Assembly: GCA_963834625.1 (NCBI GenBank)
Contig: CAWICM010000009.1
Location: forward strand, 426,706 to 490,705
Length of the DNA stretch: 64,000 nucleotides
Source of the DNA: an uncultured Solirubrobacterales bacterium
Lineage (GTDB): Bacteria; Actinomycetota; Thermoleophilia; Solirubrobacterales; Solirubrobacteraceae
Reading direction: 5' to 3'
Within the stretch, counting starts at the first letter, position 1; every line of letters begins with the position of its first letter. Shown here piece after piece: positions 15,835 through 51,316 of the stretch. The position numbers and the translations under genes were made by a program. Below the pieces are notes generated by a model that was given only the letters and a program-made list of their open reading frames with translations, made no database searches and was not told the origin of the DNA.

Positions 15835-16335
15835 CTACCCGATGCCGAGCTCGCCCAGCGCCTGCACCAGCACGTCGCGGGTGGCTTCGAGCGCCTGCGG
15901 GATCACGTTCGTGGCGGCCAGCACCGGCATGAAGTTGTTATCGCCGCTCCATCTCGGCACCACGTGCAGGTGCACGTGGTCGACGATCCCGGCGCCGGCC
16001 ACCTTGCCGAGGTTGTAGCCCACGTTGAAGCCGTCGGGCGTCATCGCGTGGCGGATGGCCAGGATCGACCGGCGGGTGAGCTGCATGGTCTCGAGCATTT
16101 CGTCTGGGGTCAGGTCCTCGAGCGCCCCGACGTGGCGGACCGGCGCGACCATCATGTGGCCCGGGGCGTACGGGAACGCGTTCAGGATGGTCAGGCAGTG
16201 CTCGGTGCGGTCGATCGGCTGATGGGCGGGATCCTCGTTGCGACCGGTCGCGGCCGCGCAGAAGATGCAATCCCCATCCTTGGGTCCGGTGATGTACTCG
16301 ATGCGCCAGGGCGCCCAAAGTGGCCGGTCGGTCAT
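15835..16335 (-). CDS. HIT family hydrolase (Ap4A phosphorylase/hydrolase-like)
   Basis: CIFC, LNAFPYAPGHMMVAP and HVHLHVVPRW. Confidence 0.93.
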   Translation of the reverse strand: MTDRPLWAPWRIEYITGPKDGDCIFCAAATGRNEDPAHQPIDRTEHCLTILNAFPYAPGHMMVAPVRHVGALEDLTPDEMLETMQLTRRSILAIRHAMTPDGFNVGYNLGKVAGAGIVDHVHLHVVPRWSGDNNFMPVLAATNVIPQALEATRDVLVQALGELGIG

Positions 16336-16355
16336 GGGCGTGGGAATCTACCCAT

Positions 16356-16910
16356 GTGTTCCACATCGAGCTTCGCCAGTTTCCCCACCAGACACGGGTG
16401 TTCAACCTCACGCCCGAGCAGCTCGAGGCGCGGATCGTCGGCCCATGGGTGGCCGGTCGTACGATCGAGCTCGACGAACGCCGCTGGGACTCGGACCGGG
16501 CCAGGCTGACGATCTACGAGGGACCGGAACTCTCGCCCGACCAGCTCGGGATGGGACGGGGATGGGCCAACGTGACCCGTTCCGGAAAGGAGGTGACCGC
16601 GCGCGTGCTGGCCAACCGAGCGCAGCCCGCGCCGGTCGCCGAGCTCAAGCGCGATCTGATCGAGAGCTGCGCCTACGGAGCCGTCCCGCTACGGCGGCTC
16701 GTCGAGCTCACCGGCGAGCGCTATCCGCAGTCGCGGGTGAGCGAGCGGATCGCCCTGTGCGAGCAGGTGGCGTGGGAGCTGCTGCACGAGGGGACGGTGC
16801 GGCTCGTGCGGGCGGGGATGACGGTCGAGCGCTCCGACTGGCAGGACGCGCTGCTGCGCTGGGAGGCGTGGAGCGGCGAGGCCGTGACCCTTGCGACGGC
16901 CCAGCCCTAG
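16356..16910 (+). CDS. Hypothetical protein
   Basis: Normal composition, GTG start, divergent from the HIT gene; no family recognised. Confidence 0.6.
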   Translation: MFHIELRQFPHQTRVFNLTPEQLEARIVGPWVAGRTIELDERRWDSDRARLTIYEGPELSPDQLGMGRGWANVTRSGKEVTARVLANRAQPAPVAELKRDLIESCAYGAVPLRRLVELTGERYPQSRVSERIALCEQVAWELLHEGTVRLVRAGMTVERSDWQDALLRWEAWSGEAVTLATAQP

Positions 16911-18052
16911 GCGACCAGGTCGTCGATCAGCTGCTCCCTTTCGGCCTGAGAGCCGAACAGGTAGCGGTGGATGCGTACGAGGCCCTCGATGTCGTGCACG
17001 TCGTCGTCCAGCTGGGGCACGAGCAGCAGCCGGCGCTCGTCGAGCTCACTAGCCAGGCGAACCAAGTTCTGCTCGTCGCGGCGCGCCAGCACGTGGTAAT
17101 CGCGGAAGTTCTCGGCCACGCGGGTGGCCAGCCCCGGCGGGAGCACCCGGGCCAAGGACCGCCTGACCTCGCGCGGCGGGCGATCGCCCAGGAGGTCGTG
17201 GTGGACGCGGTTCACGACCACGCCGGCGAACGGGAGCCCGTCGGCCTCGAGCCGCTGCCCGAACCAGATGGCCTCGTCGATCGGCTCGCGAGCGGCCGAG
17301 GTGACGAGTAGGAACGCCGTGCTCTCAGCCCGCAGCAACTGCTCGACCTGGGCCGCGCGCTGGCTGAAGTCGTTGGTCATGTCGCCGAGGAGCTGAAAGA
17401 ACGTGGTCAGGTCGCTGATCAGGTCGATCCCGGTGATCCGTCGCAGGCCGCCCAGCAGCGGGAGCGCACCGCGCCCCAGGGCGCGGAAGCCGAGCCCCGT
17501 GGGCTTCATGAACGCCTTCAAGGCGCGCCCTTCCAGGAACGCATTGAGCCGGCCCGGCGCGTCGAGGAACTCGAGCGCGTTGCGCGAGGGCGGCGTGTCG
17601 AGCACCAGCAGATCGAAGTCCCCGTCCTGGTCGAGCTCGTAGAGCTTGGCGATCGCGGTCAGCTCCTGGGAACCCGACACCGCGGTGGACAGCTCCCGGT
17701 ACACGCGGTTGGCCTTGATCTCCTCCGCGCGCCCAGGCTCCGGCGCGATCCGGTCGATCAGCTCGTCGAACGTCCGCTTGGGATCGAGCATCATGGCCCA
17801 CAGCTCGCCCTGGACGTCCAGCGCGCCGCCGGCCAGGCGTTCCGGCTTCACCCGGCGCGGCTCGTTCTCGAGCTCCTCGAGACCCAGCGCGTCGGCCAGC
17901 CGGTTGGCCGGGTCGATCGTCACCACGGCCACCTTGGCGCCGGTGGCGGCCATGCCGAGCGCGATCGCGGCCGAGCTCGTGGTCTTGCCCACGCCCCCAG
18001 ACCCGGCGCACACGCACACCCGCTTGCCTTCGAGCATCTCGGCGACGTTCAC
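16907..18052 (-). CDS. ArsA/Get3-like ATPase
   Basis: GSGGVGKTT, TIDPA and DTPP. Confidence 0.92.
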   Translation of the reverse strand: MNVAEMLEGKRVCVCAGSGGVGKTTSSAAIALGMAATGAKVAVVTIDPANRLADALGLEELENEPRRVKPERLAGGALDVQGELWAMMLDPKRTFDELIDRIAPEPGRAEEIKANRVYRELSTAVSGSQELTAIAKLYELDQDGDFDLLVLDTPPSRNALEFLDAPGRLNAFLEGRALKAFMKPTGLGFRALGRGALPLLGGLRRITGIDLISDLTTFFQLLGDMTNDFSQRAAQVEQLLRAESTAFLLVTSAAREPIDEAIWFGQRLEADGLPFAGVVVNRVHHDLLGDRPPREVRRSLARVLPPGLATRVAENFRDYHVLARRDEQNLVRLASELDERRLLLVPQLDDDVHDIEGLVRIHRYLFGSQAEREQLIDDLVA

Positions 18053-18975
18053 AGCGCGTCCTCCAGGGCGCCGGCCAGGAGCTCGAGCTGTGGGAGTCCG
18101 ACCGCTTCGGCGAACAGGTAGGGAAGCTCGACGAGCCGGCCGTCCACCCGCTCGCGAAGCCGGTCGCGCTGCTCGCGCTGGGTGGCCGCCCGGGCGTGCT
18201 CGGACAGCGCGGCGCGCAGCGCGGAGCGGGCCAGCGCCGAGCGGGTCTTCGCGAGCGCGTCGTTCAGCTCGCCGATCTCGGCCGCGTCGAAGCGAGCCGG
18301 ATAGACGGCGTTGACGATCACGAGGTCGAGCGGAAGCTCATCACGGGCCAGCTCGTCGGCCAGCGTCATCGTCTCGTTGACCGGCATCTCCTCGGGCGTG
18401 GCCACCGCGACCACGCCGGTGAACTCGGAGTCGGCGATCGTGTCGGCGATCGTGCGCCCCTGATGGGCGATCGGGCCGACCCGGGCGATGCCGGCGAACG
18501 TCCGCGGCGTGCGCAGAAGGCCCATGCCGTGACCGGTGGCCGGCGCATCGACGATCACGAGGTCATAGGGCGCGGCGCCGCGGGTCCGGCGATGCAGCTG
18601 AGCGAGCTCCCACACCTTGCCGATACTGAGGAGCTCGCGCATCCCGGGGGTGGCCATCGCGAAGGCCTGGAACAGCCGGCTCGACCCCAGAGCCTGGCCG
18701 ATCGTTCCGGCCTTGACGCGCAGGTACTCCTCCATGGCGCGCTGGGGATCGATCGAGATCGTGAACAGCCCGGGCGCCAGCTCGATCTCGCGGAACTGCT
18801 CGCGCTCATCGTCGGAGAAGACGCCCTGCATACGCTCCTGGCTGGCCATCTCGGCGACGATCGTACGCAGCCCCCGCCGGGCCGCGAGCAGCCCGAGGGC
18901 GATGGCGACCGTGGACTTGCCGACGCCACCCTTGCCCGTGACGAACAGCAGACGCTTGTCCAGGAGGGAGGCCAC
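18049..18975 (-). CDS. ArsA/Get3-like ATPase (upstream partner)
   Basis: GKGGVGKST, DAPATGH and PEEMPVNET; overlaps the second ArsA gene. Confidence 0.92.
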   Translation of the reverse strand: MASLLDKRLLFVTGKGGVGKSTVAIALGLLAARRGLRTIVAEMASQERMQGVFSDDEREQFREIELAPGLFTISIDPQRAMEEYLRVKAGTIGQALGSSRLFQAFAMATPGMRELLSIGKVWELAQLHRRTRGAAPYDLVIVDAPATGHGMGLLRTPRTFAGIARVGPIAHQGRTIADTIADSEFTGVVAVATPEEMPVNETMTLADELARDELPLDLVIVNAVYPARFDAAEIGELNDALAKTRSALARSALRAALSEHARAATQREQRDRLRERVDGRLVELPYLFAEAVGLPQLELLAGALEDAL

Positions 18976-19061
18976 CGCACTCGAAAATAGCGGGGGGGTG
19001 GGGGCGGAGGATCCCGTCCGGCGGAGGATTCCGGTTGCGCGCTGCGAATAGTGCCCTCGAT

Positions 19062-19820
19062 ATGAGCCACGTGATCGCGTTCGCCAACCAGAAGGGTGGG
19101 GTCGCCAAGACCACCACGACGCTCAACCTCGCGGTGGCGTTCGCCGAGGAGGGACATCGCGTTCTCTGCGTGGACATGGACCCCCAGGGCAACCTGACCA
19201 TGTCCCAGGGCATCGACCCCGACACGCTCGAGAAGTCGATGTACGACGTGCTGGTGCATCACATCTCGATTCGCGAGGTGATCCGCAAGCGCGAGGTCGA
19301 TGTGGCCTGCTCCTCGATCGACCTGGCCGGCGCCGAGATCGCGATGTCGACGATGATCGGCCGTGAGCGCTCGTTGCAGAAGGCGCTGAAGCCGGTCGAG
19401 GACGACTACGACTACGTCTTCATCGACACTCCGCCGAGCCTGGGCCTGCTCACGATCAACGCTCTGACCTCCGCGCACAAGGTGATCGTCCCCGTGCAAT
19501 GCGAATATCTATCGATGCGCGGCCTGATCCAGCTGCAGAACACGCTCGCCATGATTCGCGAGAACCTCAACCCGGACGTCGAGATCGAGGGCATCCTGCC
19601 CACGCTGGTCGACATCCGGACGCTGCACGCCAAGGAGGCGATCGAGTTGCTGGAGGAGAACTTCGGCGACCGGGTGTTCGCCTCCCGGATCCGCAAGACG
19701 ATCCGCTTCGCCGAGGCGCCCGTGAAGGGCATGTCGGTCCTGAAGTACGATCCGGACGGCGTGGCCGCACACGCCTATCGGCAGCTCGCGAAGGAGGTCC
19801 TCTCGAATGCCCACCGGTAA
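19062..19820 (+). CDS. ParA/Soj family ATPase
   Basis: NQKGGVAKTTT, DMDPQGN, IDTPPSLG and PVQCEY. Confidence 0.95.
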   Translation: MSHVIAFANQKGGVAKTTTTLNLAVAFAEEGHRVLCVDMDPQGNLTMSQGIDPDTLEKSMYDVLVHHISIREVIRKREVDVACSSIDLAGAEIAMSTMIGRERSLQKALKPVEDDYDYVFIDTPPSLGLLTINALTSAHKVIVPVQCEYLSMRGLIQLQNTLAMIRENLNPDVEIEGILPTLVDIRTLHAKEAIELLEENFGDRVFASRIRKTIRFAEAPVKGMSVLKYDPDGVAAHAYRQLAKEVLSNAHR

Positions 19821-21231
19821 GCGCGCAAGCATGCGTGAGGGACCGCTCGCAGCGCTGTTCCGCAAGACCGCCGAGGACGTCGAACACAAGCCTGAGCCGG
19901 AGCCGCCGGCGCGACCTGCCGCGCCGGTGAACGAGGAGCCGGCCGCGCCACCGGAGCCCGAGGTCGAAGAGCCGCGCATTCCGCTGCCGCACGAGCGCCT
20001 GCGCCACGCCTTCTCCGCCGACATCCCCGAGAACATGCTCGAGCGGCCAGCCGGCTCCGCCGCAGGGCCGCCGGCAGAGCCCGAGCCCGATGTCTACGCG
20101 CGAGCCGGCCGGGCCGGCGATGCACCGACACGCTCCACCAAGCTCGGTCCGGTATTGCGCGTGGTCGGCGTCGGCGGCGCCGGGGTCAACGCGATCAATC
20201 GGATGGTCGAGGCCGAGATCGCGGGGGTCGAGTTCCTGGCCGTCAACACCGACCTGCAATCGCTTCAGCTGTCGGCCGCGCACGAGACGCTCCACATCGG
20301 CGACGCGATCACGCATGGGCTCGGCTCGGGCTCCAACCCGGAGCTCGGGCGGGCTGCCGCGCGCGACGAGTACGACCGGATCAAGGCCATGCTGCGCGGC
20401 TCGGACATGGTGTTCATCGCCGCCGGCGCGGGCGGCGGGACGGGCACCGGCGCGGCGCCGATCGTGGCCCAGATCGCCCGCGAGCTCGGCGCGCTGACCG
20501 TCGGCATAGTCACGCGGCCCTTCCAGTTCGAGGGCACCCGCCGGCGCGATCAGGCCGAGGTGGGCATCGCCGCGCTGGCCGCCGAGGTCGACACGCTGAT
20601 CGTGGTCCCCAACAACCGGTTGCTGTCGGTGCTCGACCGCAACGTCTCGATGGTCGAGGCGTTCCGCGTGGCGGACGACGTGCTCCGCCAGGGCGTGCAG
20701 GGCATCTCCGACCTGGTCACGCTCCCCGGGCTGATCAACCTCGATTTCGCCGACGTGCGCACGATCATGTCCGGCGCAGGCAACGCCCTGCTCGGGATCG
20801 GCATGGGCACCGGGGAGCGCCGGGCGGTCGAAGCTGCCGAGCACGCGGTGGCCTCGCCGCTGCTCGAGACGAGCATGGAGGGTGCGCGCTCGATCCTGCT
20901 CTCGATCACCGGGGGTCCCGACCTGTCGCTGTGGGAGGTCAACGAGTCGGCCAAGGCAGTGGCCGAGGCCGCCCATCCTGACGCCAACATCATCTTCGGC
21001 GCGATGGTCGACGAGAAACTCATCGACAACGTCTGGGTGACGGTGATCGCCACCGGCTACGGCGACGGCCGGTCGCAGCGCCGGCAGCCCATCAGGACGG
21101 AGGTCGGGGAGGCCGGTCGCGACGACCGCTCGAGGCTGCGCGAGCCGGCCGGCGAGCCGCGCGTGAGCCGCGTGCGCCAGCGCCCGAGTACGCTCGATCT
21201 CGACGTACCGGAATTCATTCCTCGTAGATAG
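19807..21231 (+). CDS. ftsZ: Cell division protein FtsZ with an approximately 115-aa N-terminal extension
   Basis: VGVGGAGVNA, GAGGGTGTG, INLDFADV and C-terminal LDVPEFIP. The start overlaps the parA stop region. Confidence 0.95.
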   Translation: MPTGKRASMREGPLAALFRKTAEDVEHKPEPEPPARPAAPVNEEPAAPPEPEVEEPRIPLPHERLRHAFSADIPENMLERPAGSAAGPPAEPEPDVYARAGRAGDAPTRSTKLGPVLRVVGVGGAGVNAINRMVEAEIAGVEFLAVNTDLQSLQLSAAHETLHIGDAITHGLGSGSNPELGRAAARDEYDRIKAMLRGSDMVFIAAGAGGGTGTGAAPIVAQIARELGALTVGIVTRPFQFEGTRRRDQAEVGIAALAAEVDTLIVVPNNRLLSVLDRNVSMVEAFRVADDVLRQGVQGISDLVTLPGLINLDFADVRTIMSGAGNALLGIGMGTGERRAVEAAEHAVASPLLETSMEGARSILLSITGGPDLSLWEVNESAKAVAEAAHPDANIIFGAMVDEKLIDNVWVTVIATGYGDGRSQRRQPIRTEVGEAGRDDRSRLREPAGEPRVSRVRQRPSTLDLDVPEFIPRR

Positions 21232-33983: not shown

Positions 33984-34086
33984 CCCCCGAGGGCGCGGGC
34001 GAGGGCTCATGCCCCGAGGGCGCGGGCGAGGGCTCATGCCCCGAGGGCGCGGGCGAGGGCTCATGCCCCCAGCGCGCGGGCGATCA
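33979..34086 (-). repeat. 27-nt tandem repeat duplicating a stop/start (ATGA) junction
   Basis: CTCAT(G/C)CCCCGAGGGCGCGGGCGAGGG x3 at 33979, 34006 and 34033, plus the native junction at 34060. Confidence 0.9.
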
Positions 34087-35239
34087 CCATCTCCTGCACC
34101 TCGTCGGTGCCCTCCCCGATGGTGAGGATCTTGGCGTCGCGGTAGAAGCGGCACACCGGGTACTCCTCGATGTAGCCGTAGCCGCCGTGGATCTGCACCG
34201 CCTCGTCGGCGGCGCGGACGGCCAGTCGCCCACTCTTGAGCTTGGCCTGGGCCGCGGTCAGGCTGAAGTTGCGGCCCTGATCCTTGAGATAGGCGGACTT
34301 GTACACGAGCAACCGCGTCGCCTCGATCTCGGTCGCCATGTTGGCCAGCTTGCTCTGGATCGCCTGGTACTTGGAGATCGGCCGTCCGAAGGCGCGGCGC
34401 TCCTTGGCGTAGGCGAGCGCCTGGTCGAGCGCGCCCTGGGCCAGGCCGACGCCCATCGCGGCCACCCCGATCCGGCCGATGTCGAGCACGTGCAGGAACT
34501 GGCGGAACCCGGCCCCGCGGTTGCCCAGGAGGTTCTCCTCCGGCACGCGGCAGTCGTCGAAGCGTCAGCGGCCGGGTGTCCGAGGCGTTCCAGCCCATCT
34601 TTCGGTACGGCTCGCCCTGCTCGTAGCCGGGAGTGCCGTTGGGGACGATCAGGTTGGAGATCTCGCGCTCGCCGGCCGCGCGCTCGCCGCCCCGGCCGTC
34701 GCTCCCGCGCCCCGTGCCGGTGACCGCGGTGATCGCACGATCCCCGAGATGTCCGTCCCGGCGTTGGTGATGAACTGCTTGGAGCCGTTGATCACCCACT
34801 CTCCGTCCTCGAGGGAGGCCCGGGTACGCGTGTTCCCGGCGTCCGAGCCGGCCTCGGGCTCGGTCAGGCCGAAGGCACCGAGGACCTCGCCGCGGCACAG
34901 CCGGGGGAGCCACTCCTGCTTCTGCGCCTCCGAGCCGAACAGGTAGATCGGCTGGGTGCCGAGCGAGGTGTGGGCGCACAGCGTGATCGCCACCGAGGAA
35001 TCGACGCGGGTCAGCTCCTCCACCGCCAGCGCGTAGGCCAGCGAGTCGCTGCCGGCGCCGCCGTACTCCTCGGGGAAGGGGATGCCCATGAGGTCGAGCT
35101 CGGCCAGGCGGCGCACGATGTCGTAGGGGAACGAGTGCGTCCGGTCGAGCTCCTCGGCCACCGGCGCGATCTCCTGCTCGGCGAACTCGCGGACGGTTTG
35201 CTGCAGCAGGCGGTGCTGGTCGGGTAGATCGAATTCCAT
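34061..35239 (-). pseudogene. Acyl-CoA dehydrogenase with two compensating frameshifts (pseudogene or sequence error)
   Basis: The N-terminus (GAFGLTEPEAGSD, KQFITN) and C-terminus (YRDAKILTIGEGT) share a frame, while the middle (EISNLIVP...KMGWNAS) is in another. There is a 1-nt loss near 34738 and a 1-nt gain near 34562, and a stop at 34649 in the main frame. Confidence 0.85.
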
Positions 35240-49336: not shown

Positions 49337-50144
49337 GCTCGGAGCGGTGCCCTCAGTCGCAGACGCCCTACGCGACGCGACGTCCCGCCTGGACGCGTCC
49401 GACACTCCCCGGCTCGACGCCGAGCTGCTCCTGGCGCATGCGTTAGGCGTCGGGCGGGAGCGACTCGTGCTCGATGCGAGTGAGGAGCTCTCCGGCGAGT
49501 CCTTGGCGCGGTTCGACGCGCTGGTGGAGCGGCGCGAGGCGTGCGAGCCCGTGGCCTACATCCTGGGACGCAAGGAATTTCGGCGGATCACGCTGTCCGT
49601 GGATCGCCGCGTGCTCATCCCTCGGCCGGAGACCGAGCTGCTGGTCGAGATCGGGCTGGGGTTGGCGCCCGGGGCGTCGGTGGTCGACGTGGGGACCGGG
49701 AGCGGGTCGGTCGCGCTGGCTTTGAAGGACGAGCGCCCCGACCTCGACGTGTGGGCGACCGAGGTGGATGCCGATGCGCTGGCCGTCGCGCGCGAGAACG
49801 GCCGCCGGCTGGGGATCGCGGTTGAGTTCGTCCAGGCGGATCTGCTGGAAGGCGTCTCGCGCCCGTTCGACGCGGTGCTGGCCAATCTGCCCTACGTCGC
49901 CGAGGGCTCGCAGCTCCCACCCGACATCGCCGGCTATGAGCCCGGCGTGGCCCTGTTCGGTGGCCCCGACGGGCTCGACCCGGTCCGGCGATTGCTGCCG
50001 ATGGTGACCGAAGTCCCGCTGATCGCGCTCGAGGTGTGGCTGGCCGAGGCGGCGGCGTCGCTGCTCCGCGACGCGGGTTTCCGCTCGGTTGAACGCCTGC
50101 GCGACCTGGCCGGATATGAGCGAGTTGTCCTCGGGCGGCGTTGA
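49329..50144 (+). CDS. prmC: Release factor glutamine methyltransferase
   Basis: EPVAYILG, LIPRPETE, DVGTGSG and ANLPY. Confidence 0.94.
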   Translation: MPELGAVPSVADALRDATSRLDASDTPRLDAELLLAHALGVGRERLVLDASEELSGESLARFDALVERREACEPVAYILGRKEFRRITLSVDRRVLIPRPETELLVEIGLGLAPGASVVDVGTGSGSVALALKDERPDLDVWATEVDADALAVARENGRRLGIAVEFVQADLLEGVSRPFDAVLANLPYVAEGSQLPPDIAGYEPGVALFGGPDGLDPVRRLLPMVTEVPLIALEVWLAEAAASLLRDAGFRSVERLRDLAGYERVVLGRR

Positions 50145-51316
50145 GTAGCGACCGGGACGCGTTCGAGGAGTGCATCGGGGCGGGGGGGCTCGTCCTGTTC
50201 CCCGCCGACACCGTCTACGGGCTGGCCTGCGATCCCGAGAACCGGTTCGCGGTCGAGCGGCTATACCTGCTGAAGCGGCGCAGTCTGGACAAGCCCTCGG
50301 CCGTGATGTTCTGGGGCGTTGAAGACGCTTTTGGCGCGGTGCCCGAGTTGGGCGAGCGCACGCGGGCGGCGATGGCGCGGGTGCTGCCGGGGCCGGTGAG
50401 CGTGCTCGTGCCCAACCCGGGCGGGCGATTTTCCTTGGCGTGCGGCGGGGATCTGTCGACGCTGGGGGTGCGGGTCCCGTCGCTGCCGTGGCTGGAGGGC
50501 GTGCGTCAGCCGGTATTGCAATCGAGCGCCAACCGCGCCGGCGGGCCCGACCCACGTCGCCTGGAGGACGTGCCGGCGCTGCTGCGGGCGGCGGTGGACC
50601 TGGTGATCGACGGTGGCGAGTTACCGGGCACGCCGTCGACGGTGATCGATCTGCGGCGCTACGAGGAGGACGGCGAGTGGGCGGTCGTGCGGGCCGGCGC
50701 GGTCGGTGAGCGCGAGCTGACCGAGGCGCTTCACTGGCAGTACCACTTCGACGCGGTCACGTATACGGACGAGATCCGCGGCGACATTCCGGCCTACGAC
50801 GAGTTCCAGGATTCAGTGGCTTGCGCCAGCGGGGACGGCGCCCGGCGGATTCTGGACCTCGGCACCGGGACCGGCGAGACCGCGCGCCGGATGCTGGTTC
50901 GTCATCCCGAGGCGTTTTTGGTGGGCGTCGACGAGAACGAGGGGATGCTGGCGGTGGCTGGGGCTCAGCTGCCGTCCTTGCGGGTCGAGCTGCGCGTGGG
51001 GCGGATCGAGGAGCCGCTGCCCGAGGGCTCGTTCGATGTGGTGACGAGCGCGTTGTGCGTGCATCACCTGGACGCGGGTGGGAAGGCCGATCTGTTCTCT
51101 CGCGTGCACTCGGTGCTCGTGCCGGGCGGGCTGTTCGTGCTGGGTGACGTGGTGGTACCGGTCGATCCGGCTTTGGCGGTTACGCCCCTCACGCCTGGGT
51201 ATGATCGGCCGAGCCCGCTGGCCGATCAATTGGACTGGCTCTCGGCGGCCGGTTTCGAGCCTCGCGTGGTGTGGGAGCAGGGCGATCTGGCGGTCGTCGC
51301 GGCACGGCGAAAGTAA
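50141..51316 (+). CDS. tsaC: TsaC/Sua5 threonylcarbamoyl-AMP synthase fused to a class I SAM methyltransferase
   Basis: N-terminal half: DTVYGL, KR...KP, PGP, SSAN, PSTV. C-terminal half: LDLGTGTG, SALCVHHL, GGLFVLGD. Confidence 0.85.
   Translation: MSSDRDAFEECIGAGGLVLFPADTVYGLACDPENRFAVERLYLLKRRSLDKPSAVMFWGVEDAFGAVPELGERTRAAMARVLPGPVSVLVPNPGGRFSLACGGDLSTLGVRVPSLPWLEGVRQPVLQSSANRAGGPDPRRLEDVPALLRAAVDLVIDGGELPGTPSTVIDLRRYEEDGEWAVVRAGAVGERELTEALHWQYHFDAVTYTDEIRGDIPAYDEFQDSVACASGDGARRILDLGTGTGETARRMLVRHPEAFLVGVDENEGMLAVAGAQLPSLRVELRVGRIEEPLPEGSFDVVTSALCVHHLDAGGKADLFSRVHSVLVPGGLFVLGDVVVPVDPALAVTPLTPGYDRPSPLADQLDWLSAAGFEPRVVWEQGDLAVVAARRK

Follow-up and report, generated by a model that had tools for sequence, protein, structure and literature searches.

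A parA-coupled FtsZ paralogue in Thermoleophilia carries a conserved N-terminal peptide that loosely resembles a ParA-activating motif

To our knowledge, the Actinomycetota lack Min and Noc and have no established FtsZ-positioning system, and the choice of the division site in this phylum has long been an open question. In Myxococcus xanthus, the 22-residue charged N-terminal tip of PomX activates the ATPase PomZ and in this way places the Z ring (PMC7993993). The ParB protein of the same organism carries an N-terminal, partly helical motif, L11-x-R13-x-L15-x-x-L18-I19, whose binding to ParA is hydrophobic and whose R13 is required for activation (PMC12462528). Within the Actinomycetota, some orphan ParAs have division phenotypes (PMC10482377; bioRxiv 10.1101/2025.07.02.662783). 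Here we analyze a parA-ftsZ gene pair on a 64,000-nucleotide (64-kb) stretch of DNA, the window (G+C content 70%), from contig CAWICM010000009.1 of an uncultured Solirubrobacterales bacterium (GCA_963834625.1). The pair is composed of parA (19062-19820, + strand; alternative TTG start at 19035), encoding a Soj-like ParA ATPase of 252 amino acids (aa), and ftsZ (19807-21231, + strand), encoding a ParA-linked FtsZ paralogue of 474 aa. A first-pass annotation, made from the sequence alone, had placed this ftsZ outside any dcw cluster, overlapping the end of the Soj-like gene, and had likened its N-terminus to the KR..LG.GL.AL peptide with which ParB-type partners stimulate ParA. We find that an invariant, ParB-like tip is present on this parA-coupled FtsZ throughout the relatives surveyed, which suggests that a ParA gradient may directly position the FtsZ filament.

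The two genes do overlap, by 14 nucleotides (nt) (19807-19820, + strand), from the ATG of ftsZ at 19807 to the TAA stop of parA at 19818-19820, an arrangement that is consistent with translational coupling. The Shine-Dalgarno site of ftsZ, GAAGGAGG, lies within the 3' end of parA (19790-19797, + strand), 9 nt ahead of the ATG. We take this upstream ATG to be the true start because the Shine-Dalgarno site is strong, the GC content at codon position 3 (GC3) is of coding type over the 114-codon extension in the ftsZ frame (0.77-0.93), and the N-terminal extension is kept in all homologues. The alternative, that the extension is a gene-calling artefact and that the real start lies downstream at M9, M77 or near the core, could draw on the database gene calls that begin at M9 (MREGPL...), but K5, R6, A7 and S8, upstream of M9, are invariant with synonymous variation, and the frame remains open and the motifs are kept in at least 80 species despite a variable linker length. 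Given the Shine-Dalgarno site, the GC3 and the conservation upstream of M9, a downstream start, which the first-pass annotation had named as fatal to its reading, is ruled out and the artefact has a negligible chance of being correct. A promoter and terminator scan of the locus gave nothing useful, and a search for RNA evidence found the sequence only in soil DNA metagenomes.

The ParA-linked protein is an FtsZ by family models, scoring 409 bits against TIGR00065 (FtsZ equivalog; cut-off 295 bits), 151 bits against PF00091 (Tubulin) and 109 bits against PF12327 (FtsZ_C). Its N-terminus, which reads MPTGKRASMREGPLAALFRK, begins with the peptide MPTGKRASMREGPLAALFRKTA (aa 1-22; 19807-19872, + strand), whose conserved core runs from K5 to T21 and is invariant at the protein level. 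This is followed by a hypervariable Pro/Ala/Glu-rich linker (linker 1, aa 23-55; 19873-19971, + strand) with no conservation of sequence, and then by a second conserved motif, PRIPLPHERLRHAFSADIPENMLER (aa 56-80; 19972-20046, + strand), which is found in 71/73 Solirubrobacterales loci and is absent from Gaiellaceae. The FtsZ GTPase and C-terminal domains occupy aa 115-423 (20149-21075, + strand), the core of the TIGR00065 match, and the protein ends in the peptide LDLDVPEFIPRR (21193-21228, + strand), the part of the FtsZ tail that normally docks membrane anchors. Across species, the whole N-terminal extension varies from 107 to 281 aa and the distance from the peptide to the second motif from 32 to 139 aa, with a linker composition across homologues of 20% P, 17% A and 12% E. 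The Pro/Glu/Ala linker of about 95 aa described in the first-pass annotation is right in extent (aa 22-114) and composition, but it is not featureless, as it contains the conserved motif at aa 56-80. Two further short motifs occur in the extension: R(R)xLPHPS[LF] in 33/73 loci and DVYAR, just before the GTPase core, in 68/73.

The GTPase itself is intact, as had been claimed: the GTP-binding signature GGGTGTG is present as GAGGGTGTGAAP, the T7 synergy loop NLDFADV is present as LINLDFADVRTIM, and the C-terminal LDLDVPEFIPRR fits the anchor-peptide pattern D-[IV]-P-x-F-[LI], aligning with DIDIPSFL of dcw FtsZ and keeping DVPEFIPRR across loci. Only 11 substitutions, mostly conservative, are diagnostic of the ParA-linked clade relative to other FtsZ cores. 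Because these substitutions are few and mild and the anchor-binding C-terminal peptide is kept, the ParA-linked copy looks like a working FtsZ.

A scan at one genome per species gave 577 relatives, and we surveyed the pair in the best 80, all of them Solirubrobacterales, Conexibacteraceae among them; the nearest relatives of the window are metagenome-assembled genomes (MAGs) labelled Solirubrobacteraceae. The parA gene stands upstream of ftsZ in every locus that reaches far enough (77 loci, tblastn), and the two genes overlap in 76/76 loci from which both were recovered (14 nt in 72; 8, 11 or 17 nt in the other four). The pair also occurs in the Gaiellaceae, in one MAG (L081, with an overlap of 29 nt) and three metagenome contigs (L082-L084), that is in 4/4 loci, with part of the downstream synteny retained. 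Because the Gaiellaceae share this arrangement, at least two orders of Thermoleophilia possess the pair. Between species, the identity of ParA is 83-98% (77 loci) and that of FtsZ 61-86%, as expected if ParA is the protein constrained by several interfaces.

The peptide KRASMREGPLAALFRKT, the pair and the overlap are kept together in 76 Solirubrobacterales species loci and the four Gaiellaceae loci, so that the conservation across Thermoleophilia on which the first-pass annotation had staked its reading is borne out in both groups. The extension or the peptide is seen in every ParA-linked locus in which the N-terminus is present, and the peptide always occupies the extreme N-terminus (residues 1-22), the Gaiellaceae tip reading MAR[KN]RASMREGPLAELFRAT. 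Twelve peptide residues are invariant in 79 sequences (K5, R6, A7, S8, M9, R10, G12, P13, L14, L17, F18 and R19), including four of the basic residues (K5, R6, R10 and R19), and K20 is nearly so. At these invariant residues, synonymous codons vary freely—G12, for example, is encoded by GGA in 29, GGG in 25, GGC in 18 and GGT in 7 of the 79 sequences—and only codons 1-4 overlap parA; hence, selection acts on the peptide as protein, and a nucleotide-level element or the parA overlap itself is ruled out as the cause of its conservation. We also looked for the peptide on proteins other than FtsZ with a profile search covering 1.84 billion representative proteins, and among its 958 matches all of the 150 listed belonged to the same clade, either as fragments of the FtsZ N-terminus or as frameshifted calls.

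No dcw gene occurs anywhere in the 64-kb window, in agreement with the earlier placement of this ftsZ outside a dcw cluster. A second, canonical ftsZ, for which that annotation had proposed to look, is found in the same families: MAGs of Solirubrobacteraceae, Thermoleophilaceae and Gaiellaceae carry a short ftsZ of the canonical kind. By exact sequence look-ups, from which the taxon of these proteins was taken, an FtsZ type of 357-365 aa, MES(S)GSYLAVIKVVG...IDIPSFLK, appears under the labels Solirubrobacteraceae, Solirubrobacterales or Thermoleophilaceae in over 15 NCBI MAG records, and the type MRDQSGNYLAV...VPSFLRD bears a Gaiellaceae label in six. Two Solirubrobacteraceae contigs (L163 and L164) have the gene order ftsW-murG-murC-murB(-)-ftsQ-ftsZ (362 aa)-gcvT-gcvH-gcvP ... 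tRNA synthetase-scpA-scpB, and another has murC-murB-ftsQ-ftsZ. The short ftsZ follows ftsQ in the Solirubrobacteraceae loci and in most of the unlabelled metagenome loci examined, a set that includes none labelled Thermoleophilaceae or Gaiellaceae; in one lineage (L176, labelled Actinomycetota/Solirubrobacterales) the short ftsZ lacks an upstream ftsQ. In L163 and L164, no parA-like gene stands before scpA, in contrast to the mycobacterial arrangement.

The canonical dcw protein of the Solirubrobacteraceae (P0547) scores 429 bits against TIGR00065, and its core is 58% identical to that of the window protein. As a control set, we used 77 other FtsZ loci, 55-64% identical in the core, from a metagenome scan with the Gaiellaceae protein; many of their proteins belong, by the look-ups above, to the same families as the ParA-linked loci. 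An upstream ParA and the peptide are both absent from all 77, whose N-termini, judged from the likely starts, are short and of the usual kind; directly upstream of ftsZ we found ftsQ in eight and ftsA in one of the nine tested. When 162 FtsZ cores are placed in a neighbour-joining tree, all 85 that are linked to ParA group together on a long stem, with no other core among them; distances average 0.12 inside this clade, 0.35 from it to the remaining cores and 0.24 between those remaining cores. Exact matches to P0056, which is ParA-linked, and to P0635, a dcw protein, occur in the same four metagenomes. Because these families also possess a canonical ftsZ in the dcw cluster, the copy linked to ParA is a second, accessory FtsZ paralogue that is class-wide, and the simpler history in which ftsZ merely moved out of the dcw cluster is ruled out.

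The partner gene encodes a ParA by family matches (AAA_31 at 208 bits, plus CbiA), with a weak match of 48 bits to the Pfam MipZ model. Its closest solved relative is the orphan ParA of Mycobacterium smegmatis (4PFS / 5IHP / 5IF9; 207 bits), with which it has in common the KGGVAKTT variant of Walker A, followed by the M. xanthus chromosomal ParA (8RAY; 192 bits) and Thermus thermophilus Soj (1WCV; 169 bits). We mapped the functional sites of M. xanthus ParA (PMC12462528) onto the window protein, with the numbering anchored on D60A in 8RAY. The hydrophobic pocket that receives ParB (V116, L150, L152, L155, L187 and L192 in M. xanthus) corresponds to I93, L127, L129, I132, M164 and L169 here, hydrophobic at 6/6 positions, and the arginine site (Y81, E82, D110 and E117) to Y61, D62, D87 and A94, with the first three of the four residues kept. 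The DNA-binding R238 corresponds to R215. The catalytic residues K11, K16, D38, D40 and N44 are all kept, the two lysines being supplied by the deviant Walker A motif NQKGGVAKTT. We take B. subtilis R189 to be the DNA-binding arginine that matches M. xanthus R238. Across 76 species there is no variation at four of the six pocket positions, at D87, R215 or the catalytic residues, or at R186 within a D-x-R-T motif, and the few substitutions elsewhere are I93 to Met in two species, Y61 to Phe in four and D62 to His in one. The Gaiellaceae ParA is 66-68% identical and holds the mapped residues with conservative swaps such as I93 to Met.

No MinD-type C-terminal membrane helix is present in this ParA, whose C-terminus ...YRQLAKEVLSNAHR ends straight after the last helix, and its score against the bacterial MinD model, 56 bits, falls below the cut-off of 213. 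Neither minC nor minE was found within the 64-kb window, and no ParB-like open reading frame (ORF) or motif turned up there or in any of 81 related loci. Because the mapped residues are kept and a MinD-type helix is absent, the window ParA looks like a DNA-binding ParA whose pocket is still suited to a ParB-type helix. In two related ParA proteins, P0122 (374 aa; L081 8001-9125) and P0121 (335 aa), about 85-120 residues are repeated in tandem within the chain, which is probably an assembly artefact; the ParA of L082 and L083, which reads through, has about 256 aa.

What, then, would occupy this pocket? The tip of the overlapping FtsZ reads M9-R10-x-x-x-L14-x-x-L17-F18, in which M9, R10, L14, L17 and F18 are the equivalents of L11, R13, L15, L18 and I19 of M. 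xanthus ParB, with one residue more ahead of the helix. From L14 onward, the tip (LxALF/LxKT) is in register with T. thermophilus Spo0J GLGRGLEALLPKT and with GINALFNQ of Bacillus subtilis, the Spo0J alignment setting GLEALLPKT against PLAALFRKT. Like residues 1-20 of M. xanthus ParB and of T. thermophilus Spo0J, the FtsZ tip is a stretch of about 20 residues at the extreme N-terminus with a flexible region behind, predicted to be helical in part and bearing four large hydrophobic residues and a central basic residue, though in a spacing that differs from that of ParB; likewise, its gene lies directly downstream of parA, and the window ParA keeps the pocket that receives the ParB motif. The helix is predicted by AlphaFold2 from L14 at low confidence (LAALFRRTEEDGRS, residues 261-274 of P0234, a natural frameshift fusion of ParA to the FtsZ tip, or about aa 14-27 here). 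The body behind the tip differs altogether: in ParB it is a CTP-dependent, parS-binding clamp, here an FtsZ.

The tip has other sequence likenesses as well. The segment EGPLAALFRKTAEDV (19837-19881) resembles the C-terminal helix of ParA, DGVAAHAYRQLAKEV (19740-19817), with which MAFFT aligned it; a further likeness is to the conserved ScpA start VFSGPFDLLLTLV (L163 16114-16200), and all three share GP[LF]xxL[FL]. These likenesses are probably coincidental, though they offer a lead to other partners.

These features can be joined in a mechanism in which the FtsZ paralogue is both the activator and the cargo of a nucleoid-bound ParA. ParA and the ParA-linked FtsZ would be produced from one message by coupled translation, the latter laid out as a basic and hydrophobic tip, a disordered Pro/Ala/Glu tether of some 100-280 aa, a polymerising FtsZ GTPase and a C-terminal anchor-binding peptide. 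ParA-ATP dimers would coat the nucleoid; the tip would fold to a short helix and bind ParA in the manner of ParB residues 1-20; and the FtsZ polymer, as a multivalent cargo, would be tethered to nucleoid-bound ParA and stimulate its ATPase. The resulting ParA flux, acting as a diffusion ratchet, would then move the FtsZ cargo to mid-nucleoid, as with PomXYZ clusters, plasmids and carboxysomes, and the ring site would be marked through co-assembly with the canonical FtsZ or through anchors shared by way of the common C-terminal peptide. From the gene architecture and conserved residues we infer the contact between ParA and the peptide, the stimulation of the ATPase and the positioning output, though not with equal assurance. 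That the tip contacts ParA at all we consider somewhat more likely than not. That FtsZ itself would act as activator and cargo, a self-positioning polymer, is a tentative proposal on which we would not yet stake even odds. Equally provisional, and somewhat short of probable, is the suggestion that the paralogue would replace Min, PomXY or MipZ-type adaptors throughout this class, whose members are abundant Actinomycetota of soil, by telling the canonical Z ring where to form.

Several observations weigh against this proposal. The tip meets the KR..LG.GL.AL description only loosely: the ingredients of the motif (PMC12462528) are present, but GLGRGL is missing, the hydrophobic register is one residue off that of ParB and the arginine lies one or two residues out of place, giving a spacing of Phi-R-x3-Phi-x2-Phi-Phi (Phi, hydrophobic) compared with Phi-x-R-x-Phi-x2-Phi-Phi in ParB. 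A sequence search with the tip against all solved chains, ParB included, gave no detectable similarity; the resemblance is therefore qualitative only, a 13-residue match without statistical weight. On the side of ParA, the fourth residue of the arginine site, E117 in M. xanthus, is an alanine here, and the pocket residues are widely kept in canonical ParAs, so that the pocket could serve the organism's own ParB. For the P0234 fusion, structure prediction from a shallow alignment was of poor quality (pLDDT 65), and with added mycobacterial homologues the ParA part was well modelled (pLDDT 83, pTM 0.83) and the tip (252-271) stayed below 50 and undocked; because activator peptides bind the ATP-bound dimer and this was a monomer with a fusion tether of about 10 residues, the outcome is weak either way. 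Residue 185 of ParA (19614-19616), which adjoins the D-x-R-T arginine, covaries with residue 16 of FtsZ (19852-19854), being Leu in 17/21 genomes with D, E or Q at the latter and in 0/55 genomes with Ala, but one clade alone accounts for this pattern, which is confounded by phylogeny. Finally, the presence of both ftsZ copies in one genome is drawn from MAG family labels and from the co-occurrence in four metagenomes; look-ups aimed at finding the two in a single assembly led to assemblies outside our set of ParA-linked loci.

If the tip does bind ParA, the outcome could still be negative rather than positive control: ParA on the nucleoid would sequester or inhibit FtsZ wherever DNA lies, much as nucleoid occlusion or MipZ does, or the tip would compete with ParB for one pocket and thereby license division only once the chromosome has segregated. 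The same anatomical evidence serves this alternative, the retained canonical ParB pocket would permit such competition, and ParA/MinD ATPases are commonly inhibitors of FtsZ, as MipZ and MinCD illustrate (PMC7229837; 10.1101/2025.12.01.691545). The sequence offers nothing that separates positive from negative control, but known inhibitors touch the FtsZ core or work via MinC, not through an activator-type tip on FtsZ, and a long flexible tether on a polymer is more like the cargo adaptors PomX and McdB than like the target of an inhibitor; we consider negative control unlikely. The tip might, on the other hand, have nothing to do with ParA: it could target the membrane as an amphipathic helix, serve as a degron, or dock some other protein, such as a component of the divisome, SMC/ScpAB, a kinase or a protease, with parA and ftsZ simply co-expressed. 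A membrane helix is compatible with the hydrophobic moment of aa 13-27 (0.5-0.6), a value that is found alike in the FtsA membrane helix and in ParB tips and hence does not discriminate; KRAS is a site of the type used by basophilic kinases, GPLxxLF is similar to the GPFDLLL with which ScpA begins, and the model predicted no docking on ParA. But membrane helices usually keep their physical character rather than each residue, whereas here A7, S8, E11, G12 and P13 are invariant class-wide, and small and polar residues retained in this way indicate a specific protein interface. Moreover, the overlapping ParA is the only partner that tracks the peptide perfectly, and the protein already has a normal C-terminal anchor peptide, so that a tip unrelated to ParA is, in our estimation, improbable.

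A more distant alternative would take ParA and the FtsZ paralogue out of the divisome altogether, as a cytomotive module in its own right that moves DNA or another cargo, somewhat like TubZ or those FtsZ paralogues of archaea and plastids whose roles have diverged. The canonical dcw FtsZ of the same families, the long stem of the ParA-linked clade (0.35 compared with 0.24 among the others) and the lack of division genes among the neighbours all speak for such a module. The score of the window protein against TIGR00065, near that of the dcw copy, the small number of diagnostic substitutions and the retention of the anchor-docking D-V-P-x-F-I peptide speak against it, and we regard it as quite unlikely. 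Positioning of the FtsZ paralogue by a ParA gradient is the reading that we tentatively prefer.

The parA-ftsZ pair is flanked upstream by a pair of bagA/bagB-like ATPase genes, transcribed divergently, and downstream by genes for gamma-glutamyltranspeptidase and uppP. The upstream pair, ArsA/Get3-like (16907-18975, - strand), lies directly upstream of parA and is syntenic in most related loci; against the mycobacterial BagB and BagA models it scores 306 and 136 bits, below the cut-off. Beyond it, a 196-aa ORF (16320-16910, + strand) of coding-type composition and with no Pfam match overlaps a HIT-family gene and bagB at its ends. Elsewhere in the window, an acyl-CoA dehydrogenase (34061-35239, - strand) is split into two ORFs, one with the N-terminal and middle domains (34649-35239) and one with the C-terminal domain (34061-34546), the split reflecting a frameshift or a pseudogene, or else an error of sequencing. 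The segment 47261-63649 carries prfA-prmC-sua5/methyltransferase fusion-glyA ... wecA-like GT4 ... atpB-atpF, the Sua5 domain being joined to the methyltransferase domain at 50141-51316; the order from prfA to atpB-atpF is presumably that found upstream of the atp operon in other Actinomycetota.

Among described systems, the orphan ParAs of Actinomycetota (C. glutamicum PldP and the M. tuberculosis Rv1708 and Rv3213c types) resemble the window ParA in being short and Soj-like, with no adjoining parB. The M. smegmatis orphan ParA, whose locus (whiB ... entC-gpm2-parA ... rhlE) we presume from M. tuberculosis gene order to be of the Rv3213c rather than the Rv1708/PldP type, is followed by a PP2C-like phosphatase gene without a comparable tip. 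It has also lost the pocket and arginine-site residues Y81, V116, L187 and L192, as well as N64, whereas the window ParA keeps their equivalents. We considered the window ParA as a PldP/Rv1708 orthologue of the kind located upstream of scpAB, but this gained no support, its best solved relative being Rv3213c-type and the Solirubrobacteraceae scpAB lying after the dcw genes without a parA. MipZ of Caulobacter and MinCDE likewise rely on ATPases of the ParA/MinD family, which act on FtsZ and so determine where division occurs; MipZ, however, touches the FtsZ core and is placed by ParB, MinD is held at the membrane by a C-terminal helix that the window ParA lacks and acts through MinC, and in neither system is FtsZ known to bear an activator-type tip. 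Two complete FtsZ paralogues, one of them canonical, are also known from other lineages, namely archaeal FtsZ1/FtsZ2, plastid FtsZ1/FtsZ2 and the extra FtsZ of alphaproteobacteria. We know of none among these that carries a peptide like a ParA activator or whose gene overlaps parA in an operon. In the full-text literature searched, we found no FtsZ-ParA work for Thermoleophilia, Solirubrobacter or Conexibacter, no FtsZ with an activator-type peptide, and no mention of a two-FtsZ division apparatus in Thermoleophilia.

ParA together with a tip-bearing FtsZ is thus a concrete, class-wide candidate for division-site choice in a group that would possess a two-FtsZ division apparatus. A cytoskeletal polymer would be an addition to the cargos of ParA, and the locus hints that the activator peptide is a module which evolution can attach to proteins of unrelated kinds. 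PomXYZ of M. xanthus offers a parallel in architecture, with an N-terminal charged peptide, an Ala/Pro-rich disordered region and a self-assembling body acting with a DNA-binding ParA-type ATPase (PMC7993993), and its output is a Z-ring at mid-nucleoid (PMC7993993). The two differ in that the FtsZ tip has no sequence relation to PomX and belongs to Actinomycetota rather than Myxococcota; furthermore, no separate PomX/PomY scaffold would be needed here because the self-polymerising activator would be FtsZ itself. ParA/MinD ATPases with N-terminal activator peptides are already known; an FtsZ paralogue in the double role of activator and cargo would be new.

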